Part shown: positions 1,875 to 62,049 of the stretch, one piece after another
Numbering within the stretch: the first letter of the stretch is position 1
Layout: every line of letters starts with the position of its first letter
Origin: a virus
Lineage: Duplodnaviria > Heunggongvirae > Uroviricota > Caudoviricetes
IMG/VR virus record: IMGVR_UViG_3300023202_000061
DNA: 64,000 bases
Strand: one strand, 5' to 3'
The notes under the pieces: generated by a model
What the model saw: the letters and a program-made list of their open reading frames with translations, nothing else
Database searches by the model: none
What the model was told of the DNA's origin: nothing
Made by a program: the position numbers and the translations under genes

Positions 1875-2768
1875 TTAACTTGCTTTCTTCTTGACGCGAG
1901 CTGCCTTACGCTTCATGGCAGCCTCAACCAGAGCGTCTAGCTTATCCTCTGGCATACCAGCCTTGATGAAGCCAGCACGAATCTCTGCGCGCTCATCAGC
2001 CTTCGTCTTACGCTTGGCCTTAGCCTTCTTAGCGGGCTTGATTTCACCGCCAGCAAGCTTGGTCTTGACAGCCTCGGTTACCTTCTCATTGAAAGTGTCC
2101 GTGTAAGAGCTGACATCAAGCTTGTCCTTGGTGAACTGGTCGATGACAATTTCACAAGAGGCATACTCAAGGTCGTCAATTTCAACGTCAGCGCACTTGT
2201 TATCAAAGGCACGAACCTCAGAGTTGTAGTACATCTGATGAATCAGAAGACCTTGGGCAGAAGACTTGATCAAAACCAAATGTTCTTTACCTCGTGCACG
2301 CCAGGTACCAACAGCAGCCAAGTCTCGCTCCCCAAGAACCTCATGGAGAAGTTTGTATTGACGGTCACTCTTATCAGGAGCGGTGTAGAACGTCTTCTCG
2401 ATGTGAAGCGGATTGATCTCACCTACCGGAACGAACTCCTTGAGGTCTAGGGTGTCACGCTTTTCAGCCTGCATGTTCGCCACCTCTTCTTCGGTGAAGT
2501 GAACATACTTACCTTTCTCGTACTCATAACCTTTGACGGTACTGGTACGAGAAAGCATCTTTGCACCCTTCTTGACGTTGACCGTCTTGGAATCACCTGA
2601 CTCATCCACAGTCATGTCATCAGCATCGACAAGCAGTTGCTTCACAGGATTCCCCGTCTCGGGGTTGATCATCTTGAAGCTAACATGCTCTGACGAAGCA
2701 GAGAGATACATCTTGATGGGTACGTTGAGGATACCCAGTGAAATTGATACGGAACCTACTGCTCTCAT
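1875..2768 (-). CDS. ku: Ku DNA end-binding protein (prokaryotic NHEJ Ku family)
   Basis: MRAVGSVSISLGILNVPIKMY...VKGYEYEKGKYVHFTEEEV...LKEFVPVGEINPLHIEKTFY...GKEHLVLI...HQMYYNSEVR matches the bacterial Ku core; basic C-terminal tail; start moved to 2768. Confidence 0.92.
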   Translation of the reverse strand: MRAVGSVSISLGILNVPIKMYLSASSEHVSFKMINPETGNPVKQLLVDADDMTVDESGDSKTVNVKKGAKMLSRTSTVKGYEYEKGKYVHFTEEEVANMQAEKRDTLDLKEFVPVGEINPLHIEKTFYTAPDKSDRQYKLLHEVLGERDLAAVGTWRARGKEHLVLIKSSAQGLLIHQMYYNSEVRAFDNKCADVEIDDLEYASCEIVIDQFTKDKLDVSSYTDTFNEKVTEAVKTKLAGGEIKPAKKAKAKRKTKADERAEIRAGFIKAGMPEDKLDALVEAAMKRKAARVKKKAS

Positions 2769-2772
2769 TTTT

Positions 2773-3180
2773 TCATTCTCCTTTGAACGTTTCGTACATA
2801 CAGAACCCAGCGTTTTCTTCAACGATGGGCAGATTGAGTTTTACATGTCGCTGTGTGTCAGTGTTACCAATATCTCGGCGAACACTGATGAAAGCATGAC
2901 CTCCAGGCTTGAGCCTAGACTCGATGTCATGAATAATCCAAGCTTGAGTATCTTCGTCAACTACATTGAGCACGTAGTTGCAAATGATAGTGTCGAACTT
3001 TCCCTTGGGAATGTTCGGGAAAAAGTAAGGGTCGTAAGATTCAAAACCCAGCTCTCCAGCATCGAAACCTCGGCCACATCCGTAGTCCAAGACTCTTCCA
3101 CCCAGTTCGCCTCGCTCTTCTAGAAGTTTAGCAGGAGCAGAGAGTTTGCTCCGTGTAATCGCAGTGCGGTGTGGTTCATT
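2773..3180 (-). CDS. class I SAM-dependent methyltransferase domain, DNA-phosphorothioation-associated putative MTase type
   Basis: HRTAITRSKLSAP...VLDYGCGRGFD...YDPYFFP...FDTIICNYVLNVV, recalled as the MTase module of the TIGR04096-like family. Confidence 0.75.
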   Translation of the reverse strand, partial: NEPHRTAITRSKLSAPAKLLEERGELGGRVLDYGCGRGFDAGELGFESYDPYFFPNIPKGKFDTIICNYVLNVVDEDTQAWIIHDIESRLKPGGHAFISVRRDIGNTDTQRHVKLNLPIVEENAGFCMYETFKGE

Positions 3181-3352
3181 CATCAGCAAGATCAAATTCT
3201 TTCATGGGACAGTTTTCTGAATGGTCCCAGTGTTTTTGATTCCCACAGTAAGAACAGGAAGGACTGCCGTTGTGAGTGGGCTGAACCCACACAACATTCG
3301 AGAGCAAGTCTCGCAGCCTTTCGTTCTCCTTTCTCAGCTCTTTTTTCTTCAT
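3176..3352 (-). CDS. small putative Zn-binding protein (58 aa)
   Basis: Manual translation MKKKELRKENERLRDLL...CSYCGNQKHWDHSENCPMKEFDLADE; below the track length cutoff. Confidence 0.55.
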   Translation of the reverse strand: MKKKELRKENERLRDLLSNVVWVQPTHNGSPSCSYCGNQKHWDHSENCPMKEFDLADE

Positions 3353-3430
3353 TTCTGTCTCTTTCCGAAACAGCCTAGGCTGTTTTTAACACACCAGGCC
3401 AGAGTCTGTCAAGAACTTTTTTGTGGACAG

Positions 3431-3712
3431 CTACGCTGTCCGCTTCCAGGCCGGTACTTCTGGAGTAGGCAGCGCCCTGAACTCCACCTTCACGATCCTA
3501 GCGAACTGTGCGTGAGCGCGAAGGTAGTCAAGCATGATTACCCGCATCACTTTCTCATCCACATCATCTGTGATGGTACCAGAGAGAAGAACCTGACCAG
3601 AAAACTGTTTGCCGTTTTCGTACACAGGCTCAATCGTCATGTCCACAAGCTTATCCTTGACGCGGATAACTTCTGGAATTCTCGCAACAGCTAGTGTAAG
3701 AAACCTTTTCAT
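3431..3712 (-). CDS. hypothetical protein
   Basis: 93-aa co-oriented ORF. Confidence 0.65.
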   Translation of the reverse strand: MKRFLTLAVARIPEVIRVKDKLVDMTIEPVYENGKQFSGQVLLSGTITDDVDEKVMRVIMLDYLRAHAQFARIVKVEFRALPTPEVPAWKRTA

Positions 3713-3714
3713 GA

Positions 3715-4059
3715 TTACCTTAGGTATACATTGATTTTTGAAACCTTATCAAATGCAACATCCCTACCAAACTCATCTACAAAAACAGGCCACATCTTAC
3801 CAACCGTCTTCGCCACGCCCTCTGATAATGAATCTAGAAACTCTTTGTGAGGTTTGTAGTCATGTCCAAGTGCAGAAAGATCTACATCCATTCCGCCAGC
3901 AATTTTCTTAGCTTCGTCTATTGAAAAATGATGGTGCAAATGAAGCCTAGCACTAACCTTACTTGCAAAGTAAAAAGCAGGAGTTGACTTAAAGTCAATC
4001 TCTTTAAACTGCTCGAACATATCAAGCATTTGCTGTTTCATATCTTCAATTTGATTCAT
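3715..4059 (-). CDS. hypothetical protein
   Basis: 114-aa ORF, 4-nt overlap with the ligase stop. Confidence 0.7.
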   Translation of the reverse strand: MNQIEDMKQQMLDMFEQFKEIDFKSTPAFYFASKVSARLHLHHHFSIDEAKKIAGGMDVDLSALGHDYKPHKEFLDSLSEGVAKTVGKMWPVFVDEFGRDVAFDKVSKINVYLR

Positions 4060-4826
4060 GTAACATCCTTTCTAACTCGTAGAAATGAACCAGGCTTCGG
4101 CTTACCTTCTTTGGTAAGAGCCTTGTAGGTATACTCCACAACAGAACCAATCGGAGGAGGTTCCCTTGCCTCAATCTCTTTGAGACCGCCGATGTCAAAC
4201 ATCAATCCGTCTGTATTCATGACCATCAGTGAGCCTGTCAGTCCAGGGCGTGTGCCCTCGATGTGCTCAAGCACTACAGCCTCAGCTGTCATGGTCTTCT
4301 TCACTTTCAGACAGTAATTGCTTCGCCCACCAACATATGGTGAGCCAGGCATACGGAGAACCATCCCTTCGCCACCCTCATCAACAACCCTATCAAGCTC
4401 TTTGAGCAAATGTTGCCGACCCAGGCATCGTTCCTTACGTACAATAAAAGAAAGCGCTGCGGATTGGGTAATCTCAGCAGCGCTCTTAATCCTTTTCTCG
4501 TAAGGACCGGGAAGTGTTGGGGCATCGAAGATGCCATAGATGAGGTGGTCCCAGTCTCGTTCTCTTCCGCCCTTTACAGCGGACTGAACCTTTTCAAAAC
4601 CACCTCTCCCGGCCCAAAGCTCTCCATCGAGAGGTGTATCAGGCAGTCCGATGGTAAACCAATCGGGGCATCGATAGATGGTACCTAGCTTACCATCCTT
4701 TCCACGTCCGTGAAATTTCTCTCCATCCCAGTAAGCTCGATATCCATCAAGCTTCTCCATCATGAACCACCCCAGTGGATTCATGTCCTGCTTCCAAGTC
4801 TTCAGAAGCATCAAGTTCATCGTCAT
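4056..4826 (-). CDS. minimal ATP-dependent DNA ligase (adenylation + OB domains)
   Basis: Motif I EKLDGYRAYWDG, motif III LDGELW, motif IV GGEGMVLR, motif V CLKVKK, OB-fold C-terminus. Confidence 0.92.
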   Translation of the reverse strand: MTMNLMLLKTWKQDMNPLGWFMMEKLDGYRAYWDGEKFHGRGKDGKLGTIYRCPDWFTIGLPDTPLDGELWAGRGGFEKVQSAVKGGRERDWDHLIYGIFDAPTLPGPYEKRIKSAAEITQSAALSFIVRKERCLGRQHLLKELDRVVDEGGEGMVLRMPGSPYVGGRSNYCLKVKKTMTAEAVVLEHIEGTRPGLTGSLMVMNTDGLMFDIGGLKEIEAREPPPIGSVVEYTYKALTKEGKPKPGSFLRVRKDVT

Positions 4827-5691
4827 CGAACGGCTCCGGTTCAAGTTTCATCTCTAACAATTTTCTGTCAGAGTTGTAGGTTTTGATCATCCTCTTATCA
4901 AGGTCAATCCATCCACATAAATCAGGGAAGCGATAGACGGCCTTCCCGGTATACACAACAATGTTATCCCGATGCTGGTAAATACCAGGGCTGTGAGAGT
5001 GACCGCAAAGAACAACGAATTTCTTATCCTTGTTCTGTTTGGCTAGCTCTTGCAGCATCATTCCGGTACTCGCACTGGAGAACCAAGGAACCCATTCCCT
5101 ATCAGAAGGCTGTCCCTCGTGCCAAGATGACTCTTGATAGGGTGAAACATGAGTAGCGACAACAATTGTATCAGCTACTTTCATTGCTTCACGAATCTGT
5201 CCAGCCATGATGTTGGATTGCATCTGGGCTCGTGCTCTACACTTATCCAAAATGAGTCCGCGAGGATTGTGAGCAAGCTCCTTGATTACTACGAAGTCCA
5301 TTAACTCAATCTCTGTCATTGAGTTGCCGTAGTAAGCATCGTACCAACCGCCCGCACCGCAGAGAGCTACGCCATCTGCAATCATATGAAAGCCTTGGTC
5401 CAGCCAGTGAAGGTTATCAACTTTCTCAACCGTCTGTGCTGTAACCTTATCTACAACATCCCAAGATCGGTCATAGTAATCATGGTTACCAAGGACAAAG
5501 TACACAGGCTTTTCAAAACCCTTAGCCAGGTTCTCGATAGAGATACCAGCAGCGCTACCCGTAGTGATGTCCCCAGTAACTACTAGCCCAGTAGCATCAG
5601 GGTTCTCATCCTTGATGTATTGTCCGAACATGAAGCTCGGTCGTTTTCCTTTGACAAAATCAAAGTGAGTGTCTGTTGCCCAAAGTAACAT
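4747..5691 (-). CDS. calcineurin-like metallophosphoesterase
   Basis: Motifs WATDTHFD, VTGDIT, VLGNHDYY, ATHVSP, LCGHSH. Confidence 0.88.
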   Translation of the reverse strand: MLLWATDTHFDFVKGKRPSFMFGQYIKDENPDATGLVVTGDITTGSAAGISIENLAKGFEKPVYFVLGNHDYYDRSWDVVDKVTAQTVEKVDNLHWLDQGFHMIADGVALCGAGGWYDAYYGNSMTEIELMDFVVIKELAHNPRGLILDKCRARAQMQSNIMAGQIREAMKVADTIVVATHVSPYQESSWHEGQPSDREWVPWFSSASTGMMLQELAKQNKDKKFVVLCGHSHSPGIYQHRDNIVVYTGKAVYRFPDLCGWIDLDKRMIKTYNSDRKLLEMKLEPEPFDDDELDASEDLEAGHESTGVVHDGEA

Positions 5692-8632: not shown

Positions 8633-11600
8633 TTACTCCCAGATTTCTCCAAACTCTTCACTCAATTGACGCCGGTATCTAACCAACATTCTCTCAAGCA
8701 ATCGGAATGGTTTCTCATCATCATCAAGCAGCCCTGTGTTTTCAATCCATCTGGACATTCCAACATCAGGCTTAGAAAACCCCATACCATCTTTGGTCTC
8801 CGCACCGTCACAGCGCCCAAGCATGTAGCTCAGAGCATTGCGAAGAAGAACCTTCCTTTCGGAAGTTAGCTTGGGCTCAGGAGTGTCACTGACCTTCGCG
8901 GACTCTCGTCCGAGAACACCATTGATACGACCCAAGGCCTCTGCTCTTTCAGCCTCTTCAGTAGCTGCACGGATGCGGGCTTCTAATTCCTCATCGGTTT
9001 CTTCAACCACATTTACAGCCTTACTCTTGGTAGGCTTCATGGGCTTGACCTTGAGGCTCTCATCAAGGGCACGCTGAGCAAGCTCAATCTTGTACTCGAT
9101 AAGTTTGTGCATGTGCTTATCAAGAGGATGGTCAGAAACCATACGCTTGATGATGATACCCTTAGCAAGCTGACCAATTCTTACAATCCGATCCTCAGCC
9201 TGTATGTTCATCGCAGGGGTCCAATCCAAGTCAATGAACAAAGCGTGTGAAGCGTGAGTCAATGTCAGACCAACACCACCAGCCTGGATGGTCAGGGCTA
9301 CGCCCTTCAGCTCTCCGTTTTGAAACCTGTGTTTGATAGCTTGACGCTTTTCTGCAGAGGTATCCCCGGTGATAGCTGCCCACCCATCACGCTGACCAAG
9401 CGTATCGATTGGAGCACGATGAGCAGAGAAAACCAACAGAGGTTCTTCGGATTCTTCATAGGATTCAACAATCTCCATCATGGGAGCAATGCGTCCTTCG
9501 GCCAGCTTGGCACGAATCGAAGAAAACTCGTAGAAGCTAGGCAGAGAAGCAAAAGCATCCTCAATTTCTTGCTCGGAAGGAGCGCGACCATCGGCGGTTA
9601 AGCCATCGATGATCCCTTCATACATTTCCTGCATTTCCTCGGCAAGTTCCTTACCAACATCAACCTTAACGGTCTGATAAGTTTTACCAGGAAGCTCAGG
9701 AAGCACATCTTTCTTGAGACGGCGAAGCATGACTCGCTTGAGTCGTTCTGGAACCTCCGGCTTAGGCATTCCGAATTCATACCCGCCGAAAGGATTCCTG
9801 CTACCATTGAACAAGTCAACAAACTTGTACCAAGAACCAAAGATGTGACCCATGGACCCAGCCTCAAGAACTCCGTAAAGATCAGTGGCTCGATTCATCA
9901 GAGGAGTACCAGTCAGACCCCAAGTAACAGCACATCGCTGAGTCATCTCCTTGAACTTCTGAGACCGTGCGGCTTTATAGTTCTTGGTAAGGTGACACTC
10001 ATCAGAGATGATATGACACTTAGCAAGCTCAGCTTCTTGTTTCTTGGTAAGCTTAGCCGTTAGAATTGGCTTACCCTTCTTGGTCTTTCCAATTTCCTCA
10101 GTTGGTTTGAGCCAGGCGGGAAGGATATCGTAATTGATGATGACAATCTCACCCTTCTTGGGAAAGACAAATGAGTCACGACCATTGCAGATGTGAACCT
10201 TGAACTCAGGTCGCCACATATCAATCTCATCTTGCCAATTGTACTTAACAGCAGCGGGACAAGCCAGAATAACTCGGGCACCAGCGGGCAAAGCAATCAG
10301 CGCTTGTACGGTGTTGTGTGTTATAATGTAATCCTTGGTAATAAACAAATTGTCTTCTGCGTCCACAGAGATGCAAGTACATTCCGTTTCACCAGCCTCT
10401 ATCACATCAGCAATAGAAAGAGCTGGCGGGTACTTTGAGTTGGCAACAAACCTTTCTTTTTTGAAAGGAATGGTTACCGGACACATATCACTTGGCAATT
10501 TGATACGAATACGATGATCTGTGCTGCCAATCTTAATTTCTCCTTTGTATGTGTACTTTGGTTTTCTAGTTGAAAACTTTACCACACCACCAAGAGAACG
10601 AACGAGGCGAATAACATCTTCTGCCAACTGTGATGACACCGTATTGTATTCAACAATCATTCCGTCTTTAGAAACGGTTCCATCGTTGTCAACAAGTCCT
10701 TGAAGAAGAAGCAGTCGCTGCTCAACAGAACCAAAGAAATAAATTTCTGGAATGTTTTTGTTGTATGATGTTTTATATTGAAGATTGAGCTTTTTAATTC
10801 CAGCTTTTAGTTCTTCTCCATTTTTTACCAGAAAGGTGTACTCTTTATCATATTCTTGATGCTCCAGCTCTACACCAAATTCGGCAAGCTTTTCTCTTTG
10901 CTCTGGGAGGCCATGGTGAAATACAGCCCTTGACAGCGTTCCATTAGCCAAAAGAGCACCAAGAACATAAGGATGTACTGGAAATTCTTTTTCAAAATGT
11001 TCAACAGGTTCGGTTACCGGAATAAACCACTTACGATTTCCGTTATGATCTTCTAAGCCAACATCAACAATCTCCTTAAGAGTATGGGTTCTGAACTTAT
11101 CAGGATTTCTTACGCGATCATTTGGAGTTTGCACACCCCATAGATGATCTTCGGAACACTGAACATTACGTCCGTCACTGAAAGTGACATTAAAGATTGG
11201 AAGCACACCCTGAGGATACACTCCCGTTACCTTTGTTGGCTTGCCGTTCTTTCCAATGACTTCATCGCCAACAGAAAGCTCCTCAATTGGAATCCAGCCA
11301 TCTGGCGTGAGAACAGGTGTTCCGTTGCTCAGACTTTTACCAAGACCCATGTCATCAGCAAGGATGGCGCGCTTGTGCAGGGCCAAAAACTCAACGCCTT
11401 CCTTTTGAAATGGGCGAAGCTTCTTATCACCGTAGGTCTTAGCAGCACGTTTCTTTGCAGCTCTAGACTCTGGAGTGCCTTCACGACCTTGCTTCTGCAA
11501 GACGGCGGGAATTTCAAACCCAACCTGCTTTGCTACCTCAAGAATACGAGGAGCGTCCTCAGGCTTCATTGAAATGGTCCAATGTTTATCATCAGGGTTC

Positions 11601-11857
11601 CAGCGAGCGCCGGGAAGAGACTTGACAAGAGACACAGTATCTCTGTCGTAGGGGAAGAAGACCTTACCATCTTCGGTGATCTTCTTTTCTTGTGGAGCCG
11701 AGGCCTTGGATGGTTCAACACCAAGCTTGCGATGACAAGCACTGGAGTTACACACAGTGTTCCAGCGTCCGTCATTGTAAGCGAAACCCTGTCCCACCTG
11801 AACCATAACATCACAGCTCTTACATTTTTTCGCAAACTTATTAGTGATAACTCTCAT
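8633..11857 (-). CDS. SNF2-family (HARP/SMARCAL1-like) helicase precursor containing an intein
   Basis: N-terminal CxxC and HARP-like FPYDRDTVSLVKSLPGARWNP; motif I ILADDMGLGK|TVQ split by the intein; DECH; GLTGTPLMN; QAEDRIVRIGQ. Confidence 0.92.
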   Translation of the reverse strand: MRVITNKFAKKCKSCDVMVQVGQGFAYNDGRWNTVCNSSACHRKLGVEPSKASAPQEKKITEDGKVFFPYDRDTVSLVKSLPGARWNPDDKHWTISMKPEDAPRILEVAKQVGFEIPAVLQKQGREGTPESRAAKKRAAKTYGDKKLRPFQKEGVEFLALHKRAILADDMGLGKSLSNGTPVLTPDGWIPIEELSVGDEVIGKNGKPTKVTGVYPQGVLPIFNVTFSDGRNVQCSEDHLWGVQTPNDRVRNPDKFRTHTLKEIVDVGLEDHNGNRKWFIPVTEPVEHFEKEFPVHPYVLGALLANGTLSRAVFHHGLPEQREKLAEFGVELEHQEYDKEYTFLVKNGEELKAGIKKLNLQYKTSYNKNIPEIYFFGSVEQRLLLLQGLVDNDGTVSKDGMIVEYNTVSSQLAEDVIRLVRSLGGVVKFSTRKPKYTYKGEIKIGSTDHRIRIKLPSDMCPVTIPFKKERFVANSKYPPALSIADVIEAGETECTCISVDAEDNLFITKDYIITHNTVQALIALPAGARVILACPAAVKYNWQDEIDMWRPEFKVHICNGRDSFVFPKKGEIVIINYDILPAWLKPTEEIGKTKKGKPILTAKLTKKQEAELAKCHIISDECHLTKNYKAARSQKFKEMTQRCAVTWGLTGTPLMNRATDLYGVLEAGSMGHIFGSWYKFVDLFNGSRNPFGGYEFGMPKPEVPERLKRVMLRRLKKDVLPELPGKTYQTVKVDVGKELAEEMQEMYEGIIDGLTADGRAPSEQEIEDAFASLPSFYEFSSIRAKLAEGRIAPMMEIVESYEESEEPLLVFSAHRAPIDTLGQRDGWAAITGDTSAEKRQAIKHRFQNGELKGVALTIQAGGVGLTLTHASHALFIDLDWTPAMNIQAEDRIVRIGQLAKGIIIKRMVSDHPLDKHMHKLIEYKIELAQRALDESLKVKPMKPTKSKAVNVVEETDEELEARIRAATEEAERAEALGRINGVLGRESAKVSDTPEPKLTSERKVLLRNALSYMLGRCDGAETKDGMGFSKPDVGMSRWIENTGLLDDDEKPFRLLERMLVRYRRQLSEEFGEIWE
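10313..11335 (-). mobile_element. intein with LAGLIDADG homing endonuclease (341 aa) in the helicase Walker A motif
   Basis: Starts SLSNGTPVLTPDGW after GLGK; block B CSEDHLW; LGALLANG and LQGLVDNDG LAGLIDADG motifs; ends CISVD...ITHN with +1 Thr; visibly more AT-rich than the exteins. Confidence 0.92.
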
Positions 11858-51373: not shown

Positions 51374-52288
51374 ATGACTAGAGAGAAGTGGCTGACCACT
51401 GACGGGCAGAATTTTACCTTGGGGTTTCGCCCCAAGACGGTGAAGGCGCTGCCTCCGAACTACTACTCCATTAGTTTCAACCCTAATACTTCTCACTGTA
51501 TATTTGAGGCAATTGAAGATGTGAGTGATGATATTTTTCGTTTCAAGTCTCAGAGTACAATTGATGAGGCAGTTCGGGAAATTCAGTCATTTTGGGAGAA
51601 GAGAGAGTTCTTTGCCAAGCATAAGTTTCCCTTTCGCAGAGGAATTCTTCTTCACGGTCCTCAGGGTGTTGGTAAGTCCTGCGCTATCAAGATGATCTGT
51701 GAAGACATCAAGAATCAAGGTGGCATTGCCCTTGAGGTGAGGGACACAAACCTCTTTGCAATGGCAATGTCAGAGATTCGGACAATGCATCCTCAAATGC
51801 CCGTAGTTGCGATCATCGAGGACATTGACCTTCACCTTCGTCACAACGAAGTCCAGATCACGAACATGATGGATGGACTTGGTGGGTTTGATAACGTGGT
51901 GTACTTAGCAACCACGAACTACATCTCTCAGATTTCTGAGCGCGTGCGTGACCGCCCATCCAGATTCGACAGGCGGTTTTTCATTGGGTACCCTGAACCG
52001 GATCTTCGGATTGAGTACTTCAAGAGGCTGGCCAAGAAATCTGGGATTGGGAAGAAGCATGTGCAGGTATTTGCAAAGGTCTCTGAGGGGTTCTCTTTTG
52101 CCCACATGAAAGAGTTGTTCATCTCCGTCATTGGGTTTGATACTCCTCTTGAGATAGCTGTTCAGCGCCTGAAAGGAATGGGTGACATTTCTGATGAGAA
52201 TGAGCACATCGATCATAGGCCTAATGAGAAGATGCCGGTGAAGAAGTTTATTGGCTCTCCTATTGACAGTCTTCAGATGATGGTTTGA
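51374..52288 (+). CDS. AAA+ ATPase (BCS1/Cdc48-like)
   Basis: RRGILLHGPQGVGKS, Walker B AIIEDID, LATTNY, DRPSRFDR; start moved to MTREKW. Confidence 0.9.
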   Translation: MTREKWLTTDGQNFTLGFRPKTVKALPPNYYSISFNPNTSHCIFEAIEDVSDDIFRFKSQSTIDEAVREIQSFWEKREFFAKHKFPFRRGILLHGPQGVGKSCAIKMICEDIKNQGGIALEVRDTNLFAMAMSEIRTMHPQMPVVAIIEDIDLHLRHNEVQITNMMDGLGGFDNVVYLATTNYISQISERVRDRPSRFDRRFFIGYPEPDLRIEYFKRLAKKSGIGKKHVQVFAKVSEGFSFAHMKELFISVIGFDTPLEIAVQRLKGMGDISDENEHIDHRPNEKMPVKKFIGSPIDSLQMMV

Positions 52289-56317: not shown

Positions 56318-56568
56318 ATCAAGAAGAAACCATTAAATGGGTTCGTGCTGAGCTTGAAAAGGTTCAAGAGATACACCAAGACCCGACCATTGAAAAATCT
56401 ATTATTGTAAGCAAAAATCTTCTAGACCTTTTGGAAGCAACTACGCAAGAACTAAAGGAAGCAAACAAAAAGGTTGAAGCCCTAATGATAGCTATAAGAA
56501 TAGCAACCAAGTGCGTATGCGGAAAAGAGCTAAGTCCTAAATGTTCCGTTTGTGATAATGATGAATAG
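56314..56568 (+). CDS. hypothetical protein with C-terminal Zn finger
   Basis: CVCG...CSVC. Confidence 0.65.
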   Translation: MNQEETIKWVRAELEKVQEIHQDPTIEKSIIVSKNLLDLLEATTQELKEANKKVEALMIAIRIATKCVCGKELSPKCSVCDNDE

Positions 56569-56578
56569 GAGAAAGAAA

Positions 56579-56872
56579 ATGAGTGATATCGAAAGTCCCT
56601 TGAAGAAAATGCATGGCAACTACAGTGAGGTCCCAAAAGGGATGAACATCATGGCTGTTATGGGTGCTGATGGTGATACCAAGCATCTCTGGGATTCTGA
56701 CAAGCCAGAAGAAGTCCAGGCAGCCAAAGAGGTATTCAATACTCTTGTCAAAGAAAAGAAGTACACAGCATTCATGACAAACAAGAAGGGTGGCAAGGGA
56801 GATGGGCCGGTCAAGGAGTTTGATCCTTCTGCTGGCGCTTACCTGTTCATACCACAAATGCGAGGTGGCTGA
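56579..56872 (+). CDS. small protein ending in Arg-Gly-Gly (candidate ubiquitin-like modifier)
   Basis: 97 aa after an AGGAGA RBS; GDTKHLWD...EVQAAKEVFNTL...EFDPSAG...PQMRGG-stop. Confidence 0.75.
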   Translation: MSDIESPLKKMHGNYSEVPKGMNIMAVMGADGDTKHLWDSDKPEEVQAAKEVFNTLVKEKKYTAFMTNKKGGKGDGPVKEFDPSAGAYLFIPQMRGG

Positions 56873-57579
56873 TGAGCTATGTGATTACCACTCCGGTTCT
56901 TACCAAGAAGGATGAAAAGCGAATGCTTGAGTTCTTTGGTAAGGAACTTCGACACTACGATGAGATTATCGGAGAGCCCCAGGAAGTGCGGTATGTCTCT
57001 GACCTCATTTCTGAGCGCCCGTACATCAAGTCCAAGTCCGTTGGGTTTTGGTACAATGCTGGGTTTGGGTATGATACTTTTCAGCGTGAGTATTACTACA
57101 CAATACTCAAGTGGATTGCTATCCAGGTAGGAAGAGAACGATCTAGTTTTGATGGAGAGTTCACCGGAGTAGGTAAACACATCTACACAACGTATGATGA
57201 GTATGAGTTCTGGCCCGTTCTTCTGGAAAAGCCTAAGAAGAAAGAGGCTATCTGGCGCTGGGTCGATAAGTACGGAATCAAGAAGAACAAAGATTCCATT
57301 GCTGAACAGCACGTTTCTATCGCTTCAAAATTTGGTATGGTTAAAAACCCAGATCCAAAATCTAGAAAGGGATTCGTCTCTCCCCTTATGTGGTCTGATG
57401 AGGTTATGGATTATTTCAACTCCAAAGACGCTAATAAGAAATACACCCAAGAAGAGGTGGATGATCATCGCAATGTCATGAGGATTGTTGTGAGGGATTT
57501 GTACTGGGACAAAGTTCTTGAAGGACTCGCTCCTATAAAGAAAGAGATGAGAAGACTGGATAAAGCCTGGAGGAAATAG
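56872..57579 (+). CDS. hypothetical protein
   Basis: 235 aa, TGATG coupling to the GG protein gene. Confidence 0.75.
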   Translation: MSYVITTPVLTKKDEKRMLEFFGKELRHYDEIIGEPQEVRYVSDLISERPYIKSKSVGFWYNAGFGYDTFQREYYYTILKWIAIQVGRERSSFDGEFTGVGKHIYTTYDEYEFWPVLLEKPKKKEAIWRWVDKYGIKKNKDSIAEQHVSIASKFGMVKNPDPKSRKGFVSPLMWSDEVMDYFNSKDANKKYTQEEVDDHRNVMRIVVRDLYWDKVLEGLAPIKKEMRRLDKAWRK

Positions 57580-57722
57580 ACCTTCTAGATGCTACATCTG
57601 AAGAGAGGTTGAAAAACTAGAGGTAGAGGACAAGTACAAAGCTGCTCTGGAAAAAGTGCCGGAGAAGATTCGTGCTATCTTGCCTGAGCCTATTCTTCAG
57701 GTAATCTGGAGCACTTCCTAAT

Positions 57723-58751
57723 ATGATTTCTAACATCATTTACGACACCCTAGAGTATGGTGATATCCCCATTTACAACATTGGTCGTGTAAATGATGTT
57801 AGATCATTTTGGCATTTTAATCCGGGATATAGGGTTGGGGATCCGATCACTGACCCTATCAATGCCATCTTTCAAAGAGATATCATTACCCAGCGTCATG
57901 ATGAAAGAGCTGCTTTTTGGGAAGAGAGGAATGTACAAGGAACAGATGCCAGAAGGCTTGAGGTTGGCGCTCTTGTCAACACAGATATTGATGCCACATT
58001 AAAAAACATCAAAGATAAGATTCTACCTTGGTTGGAGCAAATTCATGACCGCGCTCCAGATGTCCCCGGCACGCTCATCATTCCTATAAGGATGAGAGAG
58101 TGTATGCCCGCTCTTGATGTTAGGACAGGAGAAGAGGGTAACACTTGGCTGATAAAATTCGGGATGGCCTGGGTTCCGTACATCCAAATGGGAGAGCCAA
58201 TTCCTTGGGATCGGGTGTGTCCTAAAGAAATTGTTAAACAGCTCATCCTACGTGGAACTCCATACCTGGAAGAGGATATTCATCCTGTTACCACGAACAT
58301 TCTAAATAACAATATTGCTCGGCTTGATATCACAACTCTTCGTTGTTGGAACATCCAGAAGATTCGACGTGAGGAGGAAGCCGCAGAACAGCGTGCAAGA
58401 ATGCTTCTGTATAGATTCTTAACAGAAGGGCAGATTGTTGATTTTGAGGAGTCTGATTTCTTTCTTGTTAAGGGCTCTGACTATCGAACATACCGTCTTG
58501 AGAACAAATCAATGCACAACGTCTTTCTCATGAGCGGGGAGCGCAAAATTAAAGAGTTCTGCATTGTAAGTACAAAGAAAGTTCCAATCTGTGACCTTCT
58601 TCTTGGTCAAAAAATGATGTTGGAGAATTGTCCAGAGCAACTGTATGAGCAGTCCAACATATGGGACATCAACAAGTTTGGAGAGAAGAAATTTGTACAT
58701 AAAGCAAAAATACAAATGGGTCTTTTTCCTCCTTTTTCTCCTTTTTCTTGA
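57723..58751 (+). CDS. hypothetical protein with conserved C-terminal Cys-containing domain
   Basis: EQRARMLLYRFLTEGQ...FFLVKGSDYRTYRL...EFCIV...VPICDLLLGQKMMLEN. Confidence 0.75.
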   Translation: MISNIIYDTLEYGDIPIYNIGRVNDVRSFWHFNPGYRVGDPITDPINAIFQRDIITQRHDERAAFWEERNVQGTDARRLEVGALVNTDIDATLKNIKDKILPWLEQIHDRAPDVPGTLIIPIRMRECMPALDVRTGEEGNTWLIKFGMAWVPYIQMGEPIPWDRVCPKEIVKQLILRGTPYLEEDIHPVTTNILNNNIARLDITTLRCWNIQKIRREEEAAEQRARMLLYRFLTEGQIVDFEESDFFLVKGSDYRTYRLENKSMHNVFLMSGERKIKEFCIVSTKKVPICDLLLGQKMMLENCPEQLYEQSNIWDINKFGEKKFVHKAKIQMGLFPPFSPFS

Positions 58752-58858: not shown

Positions 58859-59167
58859 ATGGGGGACAAAATCACGCCCGCACATTGCCCGTACTGCCTT
58901 AGAAAGCTTGGTGCAGCTGGACCGGGCGCTCATATTGGAGAAGAGCCTGAGCCTCCTCCTGGGCCAGGCAGTATTGGTCTTTGCGTGTACTGTGCAAAGC
59001 TCAGTATGATTGGGCCCGATGGCAATATGGTAAAGGTCACAGATGAAGAGTTTGAACAACTCCCTTTACTTATTCAGGTTGGTATCAAAGCACATCAACG
59101 GATTCTCAACAACGGCTTGAAAGATGAGATGTGCAAAGAATATAACAAAAATACAACGCTGAATTGA
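58859..59167 (+). CDS. Zn-ribbon protein, paralog of 61762-62049
   Basis: CPYC...PGPGSIGLCVYCA. Confidence 0.7.
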   Translation: MGDKITPAHCPYCLRKLGAAGPGAHIGEEPEPPPGPGSIGLCVYCAKLSMIGPDGNMVKVTDEEFEQLPLLIQVGIKAHQRILNNGLKDEMCKEYNKNTTLN

Positions 59168-60414: not shown

Positions 60415-60709
60415 TGAACTGAGAGAAATTACCAAAGAAGCAGATAGTGGTATTGTTGCTAAGATGGCTGAAACTCTCATCAACGAGTGGCAACGCCAAT
60501 GTGAAAATGCTGCAACCAAGGGTAAATCATACTGGGAAGAAAACATCTCCAATAAACCAATTGAAAAGCCTGTTCTCATGAAGGTTTTGGAGTCTTTCAG
60601 ATCCTTTGGGTATGATGCTGTCGTTATCAATAGAAATGATCCTGGGGATTCAAATAATCCTTGGAGTGGTGGTACAGAGCGTTTCGTTGTTATTCGTTGG
60701 GGTCTGTAA
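60401..60709 (+). CDS. hypothetical protein
   Basis: 102 aa. Confidence 0.65.
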   Translation: MKTANELREITKEADSGIVAKMAETLINEWQRQCENAATKGKSYWEENISNKPIEKPVLMKVLESFRSFGYDAVVINRNDPGDSNNPWSGGTERFVVIRWGL

Positions 60710-60714
60710 TAAAA

Positions 60715-61548
60715 GTGAAACGAATTATCCCCATAGCTTTATTTGGCATCGCTTGCTCTAGCTCGTCTTGTTCCAAAACGGTAGTCCCGGAGGACCCACA
60801 TGATGACAATCAATCTGATGCCGACCCAACCGAGGTGGTATCAGACGAAGAAGACGGAGAGGAAAGTTCAACAACCGGAGAAGATGTTGAAGATCAACCT
60901 TCTGCCCCGCCAGAAGTGGTGGTCCCGCCTGTTCGGCCTGTAAAATGGACATGGCCCCTAGGGCTCGATGAGGGCCTTCGTAATGACGCCGGAGGCCAAG
61001 GATGGTTCGGAGCCCCACGAGGGACCAGAAAGCACACAGGGCTCGATTTGAAGGCTCCCACAGGCACGCCTGTGCTTGCCGTCTGCCCTGGGGATTACAT
61101 CACAGGAGATCAGCGCCCATACGGTACTTTTGCACGCCTTGTGTGTAAGATTCCAGAACAGGAACTATGGGTTTCTGTGATGTATGCACACCTCTCTTTG
61201 GTAAAAGAAGTCTCAGAGTTTACCCCTGTGAGAATTGGGGATGAAATTGGGGAGGTAGGTAAGTCTGGAAATGCTTCGGGTGATAATATAGATCCACACC
61301 TCCACATTGAGATGAGAATATGGCCTGATGAGGATTCAGCTAAGGCTGACACTTACTCCTTAAGAGATAAAGGTCCTGAGTATGATTGGGCTGAATTTGA
61401 AAACACTCTTTCCGAATGCACCTCTCTCAATAGTTCAATCGGATCTCGGCAAGATCATATGTTTGATCCCTTCTACATTCTTTTGTGCTTTGGAAATCTT
61501 CCCCCGGCCGTGAGTGAATCATGGTCAGAAAACTATCAGGATCTATAA
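60715..61548 (+). CDS. M23 family metallopeptidase, exported (possible lipoprotein)
   Basis: GTG start MKRIIPIALFGIAC; HTGLDLKAP (HxxxD), YAHL, PHLHIE (HxH). Confidence 0.85.
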   Translation: MKRIIPIALFGIACSSSSCSKTVVPEDPHDDNQSDADPTEVVSDEEDGEESSTTGEDVEDQPSAPPEVVVPPVRPVKWTWPLGLDEGLRNDAGGQGWFGAPRGTRKHTGLDLKAPTGTPVLAVCPGDYITGDQRPYGTFARLVCKIPEQELWVSVMYAHLSLVKEVSEFTPVRIGDEIGEVGKSGNASGDNIDPHLHIEMRIWPDEDSAKADTYSLRDKGPEYDWAEFENTLSECTSLNSSIGSRQDHMFDPFYILLCFGNLPPAVSESWSENYQDL

Positions 61549-61772
61549 TGGAAAAACCAGAAATTCTACAGCACTTCGAATACTCTCACCTTCCCGATCA
61601 CCTAAAGAAGATTTCTCAACCCTTCTTTGATATGGCGCATTCTCACATTGCCATGTTACCAGAGTGTGAGGAAAGAGACGTTGCTCTTCGCAAGCTTTTG
61701 GAGGCTAAAGATTGTGCTGTACGTGCTGCTTTAGTAAGGCCCACTGAAAGAGGCGGACCAGATGACAGGTAA
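61548..61772 (+). CDS. conserved small helical phage protein (possible Acb2/Tad1-like hairpin)
   Basis: ILQHFEYSHLP...ISQPF...ERDVALRKLLEAKDCAVRA. Confidence 0.65.
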   Translation: MEKPEILQHFEYSHLPDHLKKISQPFFDMAHSHIAMLPECEERDVALRKLLEAKDCAVRAALVRPTERGGPDDR

Positions 61773-62049
61773 AACAGAATATCTTGCACATACCTATCAA
61801 GTTCAAGATACTCATAGGTGTCCTGATTGTGATAGGGTAATGGATGCTGCCACAGGGATAACAGAGGATGCAGTTCCGAGAGATGGGGACTTCTCTCTGT
61901 GTGCTTACTGTGGTTCGGTAAATAGATTCTTTCAAGGTAAGTTGCTTAAAGCAACAGAGGAAGAAGAGAAAATCATTGATCCTGAGCAATACAGGTTACT
62001 GAAAATTATTCAGGCAAAGATAAGGTCTGACAATTCTGCAAGAAATTGA
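61762..62049 (+). CDS. Zn-ribbon protein, paralog of 58859-59167
   Basis: CPDC...PRDGDFSLCAYCG. Confidence 0.7.
   Translation: MTGKTEYLAHTYQVQDTHRCPDCDRVMDAATGITEDAVPRDGDFSLCAYCGSVNRFFQGKLLKATEEEEKIIDPEQYRLLKIIQAKIRSDNSARN

Follow-up and report, generated by a model that had tools for sequence, protein, structure and literature searches.

A Gly-Gly-terminated small protein and a cysteine-domain partner form a widespread two-gene, possibly ubiquitin-like module in phages

Does a small phage protein that ends in two glycines, encoded close to a protein with a candidate catalytic cysteine, belong to a ubiquitin-like tagging system, as an earlier note on this DNA proposed? Our analysis of the window, the whole 64,000-nt stretch considered here, confirmed the gene arrangement described in that note, in coordinates as well as in sequence. 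A strong ribosome-binding site (AGGAG, 56567..56571) lies 7 nt upstream of the ATG at 56579 of a 97-aa gene (56579..56872, + strand, like every feature of the locus), whose beta-grasp-like domain covers approximately residues 20-97 and whose product ends PQMRGG; the family alignment marks Gly96-Gly97, encoded at 56864..56869, as the terminal pair, with the stop codon directly after the last Gly. That stop (56870-56872) overlaps the ATG of a 235-aa ORF (56872..57579) in the sequence TGATG, and a 342-aa gene (57723..58751) follows, which carries the C-terminal motifs quoted in the note and whose product we call the partner. The locus sits in a dense run of small genes without known function in a large phage (contig of at least 138.6 kb), and a promoter and terminator scan of it gave chance-level signals only. 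None of the 97-aa, 235-aa and 342-aa proteins has a match in Pfam, PHROGs, NCBIfam or PADLOC. Searches of the fetched loci, the family libraries and phage records found nothing related to the 235-aa gene, so it appears not to be part of the module and is most likely an unrelated insertion. Elsewhere in the window, two small proteins with paired CxxC motifs (58859-59167 and 61762-62049; mutual E about 0.002) are probable Zn ribbons, a Pfam match identifies a peptidase M23 gene at 60661-61548, and inspection by eye of 1875-4844 and 8633-11857 picked out a Ku-like protein, an ATP-dependent DNA ligase-like gene and an SNF2-like helicase seemingly with an intein.

Understanding the small protein required a profile search, as word-index searches with single protein sequences returned only the query itself or a near copy. 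A profile built from seven sequences defines a family of 2,569 clusters at 50% identity, and 131 of the best 150 of these clusters end exactly in Gly-Gly. Since the tail was included in that profile, a DNA pattern limited to the N-terminal GDTK..WD motif was also used to fetch loci, and in these tail-blind samples the exact ending is found in 51 of 60 viral and 56 of 64 mostly metagenomic members. Pooling yields 174 distinct complete members, of which 150 (86%) end in Gly-Gly, 10 in x-Gly, 8 in Gly-Gly plus an extension and 6 otherwise; among aligned members the last Gly is present in 125/125 and the penultimate one in 121/125. The background rate is 2 in 298 window ORFs of at least 60 aa, and conservation of the ending, on which the earlier note had staked its case, is far beyond chance. 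Longer members in which part of the domain is duplicated, in some cases with a Pro-Gly end, occur at L003:3830-4261 (virus Rctr197k), L046:5539-6099 and L004:3845-4207.

The beta-grasp fold that the earlier note proposed to look for is suggested by the arrangement of the model, with weak scores. The AlphaFold model (pLDDT 86.6) has the order strand, strand, helix, strand, strand, Gly-Gly, and its structural matches are nearly all beta-grasp proteins, including protein L/G (Z up to 4.8), TtuB (Z 3.3), MoaD (Z 3.0), NEDD8, SUMO and Ufm1; these matches are weak (Z at most 4.8, rmsd 3.5, Foldseek E above 0.05), and the tool grades the Z range seen for this protein and for the partner as possibly mere common arrangement. 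Foldseek gave no significant PDB match for the model, and sequence searches of Pfam, NCBIfam and the PDB, which would have shown ThiS/MoaD membership, came back empty. The model thus weakly suggests a protein that is ubiquitin-like in layout, a fold match that does not imply membership of a family.

The small gene and the partner recur side by side, as the earlier note had stated: where enough downstream DNA is available, a partner gene lies within 2.5 kb downstream of the small gene, which holds for 45/46 of the viral loci and 28/32 of the metagenomic ones. Linkage in the reverse direction, from Cys-domain gene to small gene, is looser (16/28) because large phages carry additional orphan partner paralogues; in one 529-kb record two partners are present but no small gene was detected. 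At L126:1363-2526, L117 and L071, two to three Cys-domain genes stand in tandem, in some cases with no small gene nearby. Genes between the two members are common, unrelated and sometimes HNH-like, and no third neighbour recurs among the fetched loci. We therefore reject the suggestion that the tag marks host proteins for phage AAA+ ATPases, since no AAA+ or other third gene recurs beside the module; of the two window genes named for that role, 51374-52288 carries Pfam AAA and 1-699 is an ORF with a Walker A motif. In bacteria we found the module in 1 of 301 Planctomycetota genomes and on 10 Bradyrhizobium plasmids, in a poor sampling that relied on a narrow pattern for the genome-contig scan; one locus from that scan proved to be a false match. 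A divergent copy of the pair lies beside housekeeping genes on a Planctomycetota contig (L144:1507-2490), and Bradyrhizobium plasmids (L012, L013) have up to three small-gene matches each. We found no description of the module in the literature covered, from which subscription papers were mostly absent, and we conclude that it is a real, widespread and undescribed two-gene unit.

The last ~110 aa of the partner define a second unnamed family; neither the partner nor the small protein, nor their relatives, nor the long N-terminal regions have a match in family libraries. In the window the Cys domain comprises residues 212-328 (58356..58706), with His265, Asn266, Cys280, Pro288, Asp291 and Asn312. 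The cysteine proposed in the note as catalytic is present in 170/170 domains, a count that takes in domains fetched by a motif without the Cys, and it remains a candidate nucleophile accompanied by Asp (168/170), Pro (167/170) and a late Asn (146/170). A His at Cys+2 is found in 65%, and a second His site just before a conserved Asn-Val is often occupied where the first is missing, as in the window partner, which has Val at Cys+2 and His265 (58515..58517) at the alternative site of the alignment. Among 142 representatives, 84 have the Cys+2 His only, 30 the pre-Asn-Val His only, 7 both and 21 neither. Independent pairs favour a swap between the two sites by 12 to 2 (p 0.013), a value obtained with a fast tree for an interval that the data themselves suggested and that was the strongest of ~108. 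By the secondary structure of the model, the two positions lie on either side of the Cys across a hairpin, which suggests that His and Cys may act as a pair.

The Cys-domain model (pLDDT 96) placed RWD domains at the top of a wide structural search (Z 4.4-5.1), with true E2s at Z 2.7-3.4; the best matches are RWDD2 (Z 5.1, rmsd 3.5, 91 aligned) and 4y1l_C (Z 5.0, rmsd 3.1, 82 aligned), and no protease fold is in the list, although the domain could still have one. Kinship with E2 enzymes is a lead only, because Foldseek returned no significant PDB match for the model and hhalign against 29 Planctomycetota E2s gave a probability of 0.1, with 51/60 shuffles scoring as high. A likeness to the E2 HPN...Cys motif was rejected, the profile comparison being at noise level. 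A structural match (TM 0.69 to the Cys domain) to a 397-aa protein of Agrobacterium phage Atu_ph07 (BFVD A0A2L0UZL2) found no confirmation in sequence, as neither module profile matches that genome; if genuine, it would offer a model in culture.

The partner usually begins with a Thr/Trp-rich low-complexity segment followed by a long charged helix. The corresponding ~210 aa in the window (57723..58355) are not Thr/Trp-rich, and hhalign relates them weakly (probability 39.9, E 3e-4, no starred support) to the N-domain of a subfamily comprising L073, L017, L092 and L097, which stands beside a small gene in L073 and is orphan in L092 and L097. Because the window partner groups with orphan paralogues in the tree, its cognate pairing with the 97-aa protein rests on position and on the family-level model.

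How the two proteins might meet is suggested by a predicted complex, which scored 0.83, compared with 0.00 for the best of three controls, on a scale whose mark is reached by 58/80 solved complexes and 2/110 mismatched pairs. At least 98% of contacts are shared between runs, with pLDDT 86 given for the small protein and for the partner, and the interface has ~100 contacts. Residues 91-97 of the small protein are modelled along partner residues 280-288, where Cys280 (58560..58562) and Asn312 both touch Gly96, the placement of the Gly-Gly tail at the partner Cys that the earlier note had proposed to look for. Memory of a solved pair is a less likely source of this model, since a PDB sequence search found no relative of either chain. 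The prediction supports binding of the small protein in a partner groove with its tail at the Cys; this placement would fit a peptidase equally well as a transfer enzyme.

A free C-terminal carboxylate needs activation to form a thioester, and the source of that activation is the point at which the earlier proposal of an E1-independent system gives way. Its premise agrees with narrow phage profiles for E1-like and JAB proteins, which find neither in the window, the searched part of the 138.6-kb contig. Over a larger sample, 21/28 near-complete phages with the module lack a ThiF match in a search that was positive in 12/14 control genomes, and phage ThiF, where present, is mostly part of a separate cassette of JAB, a Ubl ending PFG and a short E1. 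Strict independence is nevertheless unlikely, because a free Gly-Gly needs activation and in 86% of members nothing follows the tail that could be transpeptidated; the partner, moreover, matches no nucleotide-binding family. Among ~150 loci, one has an E1 adjacent to a module gene: at L205:546-1585 (-), a MoeB-type adenylyltransferase that passes the NF004281 cut-off has its stop overlapped by the start of a small-family member (E 1.6e-20, ending SGG). That enzyme is without the Cys preceding EAG in E. coli MoeB, and L205 is a single 2.1-kb metagenome contig on which no partner is seen. The coupling at this one locus would be what activation by a borrowed E1 predicts. Sharing of an E1 has precedent in Thermus TtuC, a single enzyme that serves several carriers and conjugates TtuB to lysines (PMC3980101).

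We propose, at a probability of roughly 45%, that the pair is a phage ubiquitin-like module in which a borrowed E1 activates the small protein and a thioester then forms on the partner. A MoeB/ThiF-type adenylyltransferase, usually that of the host, would adenylate the terminal Gly; with the tail in the modelled partner groove, the invariant Cys could form the thioester, assisted by the neighbouring His and the conserved Asn and Asp in a manner comparable to an E2 or an RBR-type E3; and the tag might then be discharged onto a target picked by the variable N-terminal region of the partner, or onto the partner itself. We infer all of this chemistry from conservation, linkage, the lack of a linked E1, and predicted folds and binding. 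A further-reaching version, a widespread conjugation system of phages in which a ubiquitin-like family and a Cys-His acyl-transfer domain, both new, exploit a hijacked housekeeping MoeB/ThiF of the host and interchangeable N-terminal regions choose host or phage targets, seems slightly less probable than this proposal.

The main rival to thioester transfer casts the partner as a new type of Cys peptidase for the small protein, one that matures Gly-Gly-X precursors and removes the tag; attachment would then be the work of an E1 by itself, as with SAMP, TtuB and Urm1. We consider this rather unlikely, although an extended tail that ends at the Cys in the groove of the complex model, a His beside the Cys in 121/142 representatives at two nearly exclusive positions, and the lack of a JAB gene linked to the module would all suit such an enzyme. 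The reading is kept alive by the ~5% of small-family members that carry extensions or fusions after Gly-Gly, which under thioester transfer would depend on a protease not linked to the module. At L230:3475-4008 and L298:2501-3076 (11 contigs), ~100 aa follow the Gly-Gly and an intact partner comes next, and at L100:701-1780 (-) the small protein is fused in frame to the partner, a fusion present in two assemblies; an 803-aa ORF called in L100 is an over-extended frame, of which only the last ~370 aa, the fusion itself, are meaningful. These members look like precursors and, if functional, would need a cut after Gly-Gly, which either the partner or a host JAMM enzyme could make; the second option counts against the peptidase reading. 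So do the 21/142 representatives in which both His are missing, as a strict catalytic dyad would not allow, and the 86% of members for which no processing is required. For these, the sub-case of ATP-free transpeptidation from precursors would also be left without a substrate.

Two further explanations dispense with tagging, and both strike us as improbable, the second a little more so. The small protein could be a decoy that occupies a host E1 or the enzyme of Bil, Bub or CBASS Cap2, or the two proteins could act non-covalently, with Cys, His, Asp and the terminal carboxylate holding a metal or a stable complex. Near-confinement of the module to phages, apart from some Bradyrhizobium plasmids, and the large predicted interface would agree with this, as would the targeting of phage proteins by Bil (10.1101/2023.09.04.556158). 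A decoy, however, would not require an invariant Cys on a partner inherited along with it, and the anti-defence link raised in the earlier note found no counterpart in PADLOC matches or in the neighbourhoods of the fetched loci. Alternatively, the small protein could be a sulfur carrier, thiocarboxylated like ThiS/MoaD, with the partner Cys giving or accepting a persulfide as phage nucleic acids or cofactors are modified. The tail of the small protein is similar to the MoaD/ThiS type, MoaD and TtuB are among the protein's fold matches, and the enzyme at L205 is MoeB-type; yet no sulfur-using enzyme recurs near the module, the N-termini of the partner are variable, with low-complexity or unknown domains, and the partner matches no family.

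Bacterial ubiquitin-like conjugation is known mainly from host defence or sulfur metabolism. If tagging by thioester transfer is correct, the virus side uses the same chemistry in a two-gene version spread over thousands of protein clusters, through an enzyme family that is missing from Pfam, PHROGs, NCBIfam, PADLOC and the PDB, and a housekeeping E1 can be hijacked. The small size of the two proteins, together with predicted active residues that can be named, makes the question directly testable.

Among known systems, the small protein resembles ThiS, MoaD, TtuB, SAMP and Urm1 in its size, its strand-strand-helix-strand-strand order, a hydrophobic strand followed by Pro and Gly-Gly at the exact end, and probable MoeB-type activation. 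It differs from them in having no sequence match and only a weak fold match (Z about 3), and the module is phage-borne and travels with a Cys partner rather than with an E1 or sulfur enzymes. Bil, Bub (PMC10557695, PMC11601596) and Iyer types 6a-6e (PMC1779556) likewise combine a Ubl with a nucleophile partner of UBC/RWD-like shape, a shape that the module partner matches weakly, and type 6d E2-like proteins (PMC1779556) have a His after the Cys, as many module partners do. These are host systems that themselves encode an E1 together with JAB or another peptidase, whereas the module consists of two genes only; judged by gene content, with neither E1 nor JAB, it falls outside their operon types. 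The lambdoid TAPI/TAPK pair (PMC1779556) also sets a phage-encoded Ubl with a conserved Gly beside a peptidase-domain gene. TAPI, in contrast, continues past the Gly and resides in tail operons with JAB/NlpC domains, while the module lies among small non-structural genes without JAB or NlpC. A jumbo-phage cassette of JAB, a small protein ending RPKTPFG and a short E1 was seen at L131, L133, L134, L137 and L139-L141, and JAB profiles match this cassette only. At L134:3081-3533 (-), which is the same as L097, an orphan Cys-domain paralogue with the N-domain type of the window partner lies ~1 kb from the cassette on the opposite strand, possibly by chance. Although the cassette has a different Ubl, its own E1 and JAB, and a position mostly tens to hundreds of kb away, it is a ubiquitin-like system of phages, as the module may be, and the two are found together in some of the same genomes.
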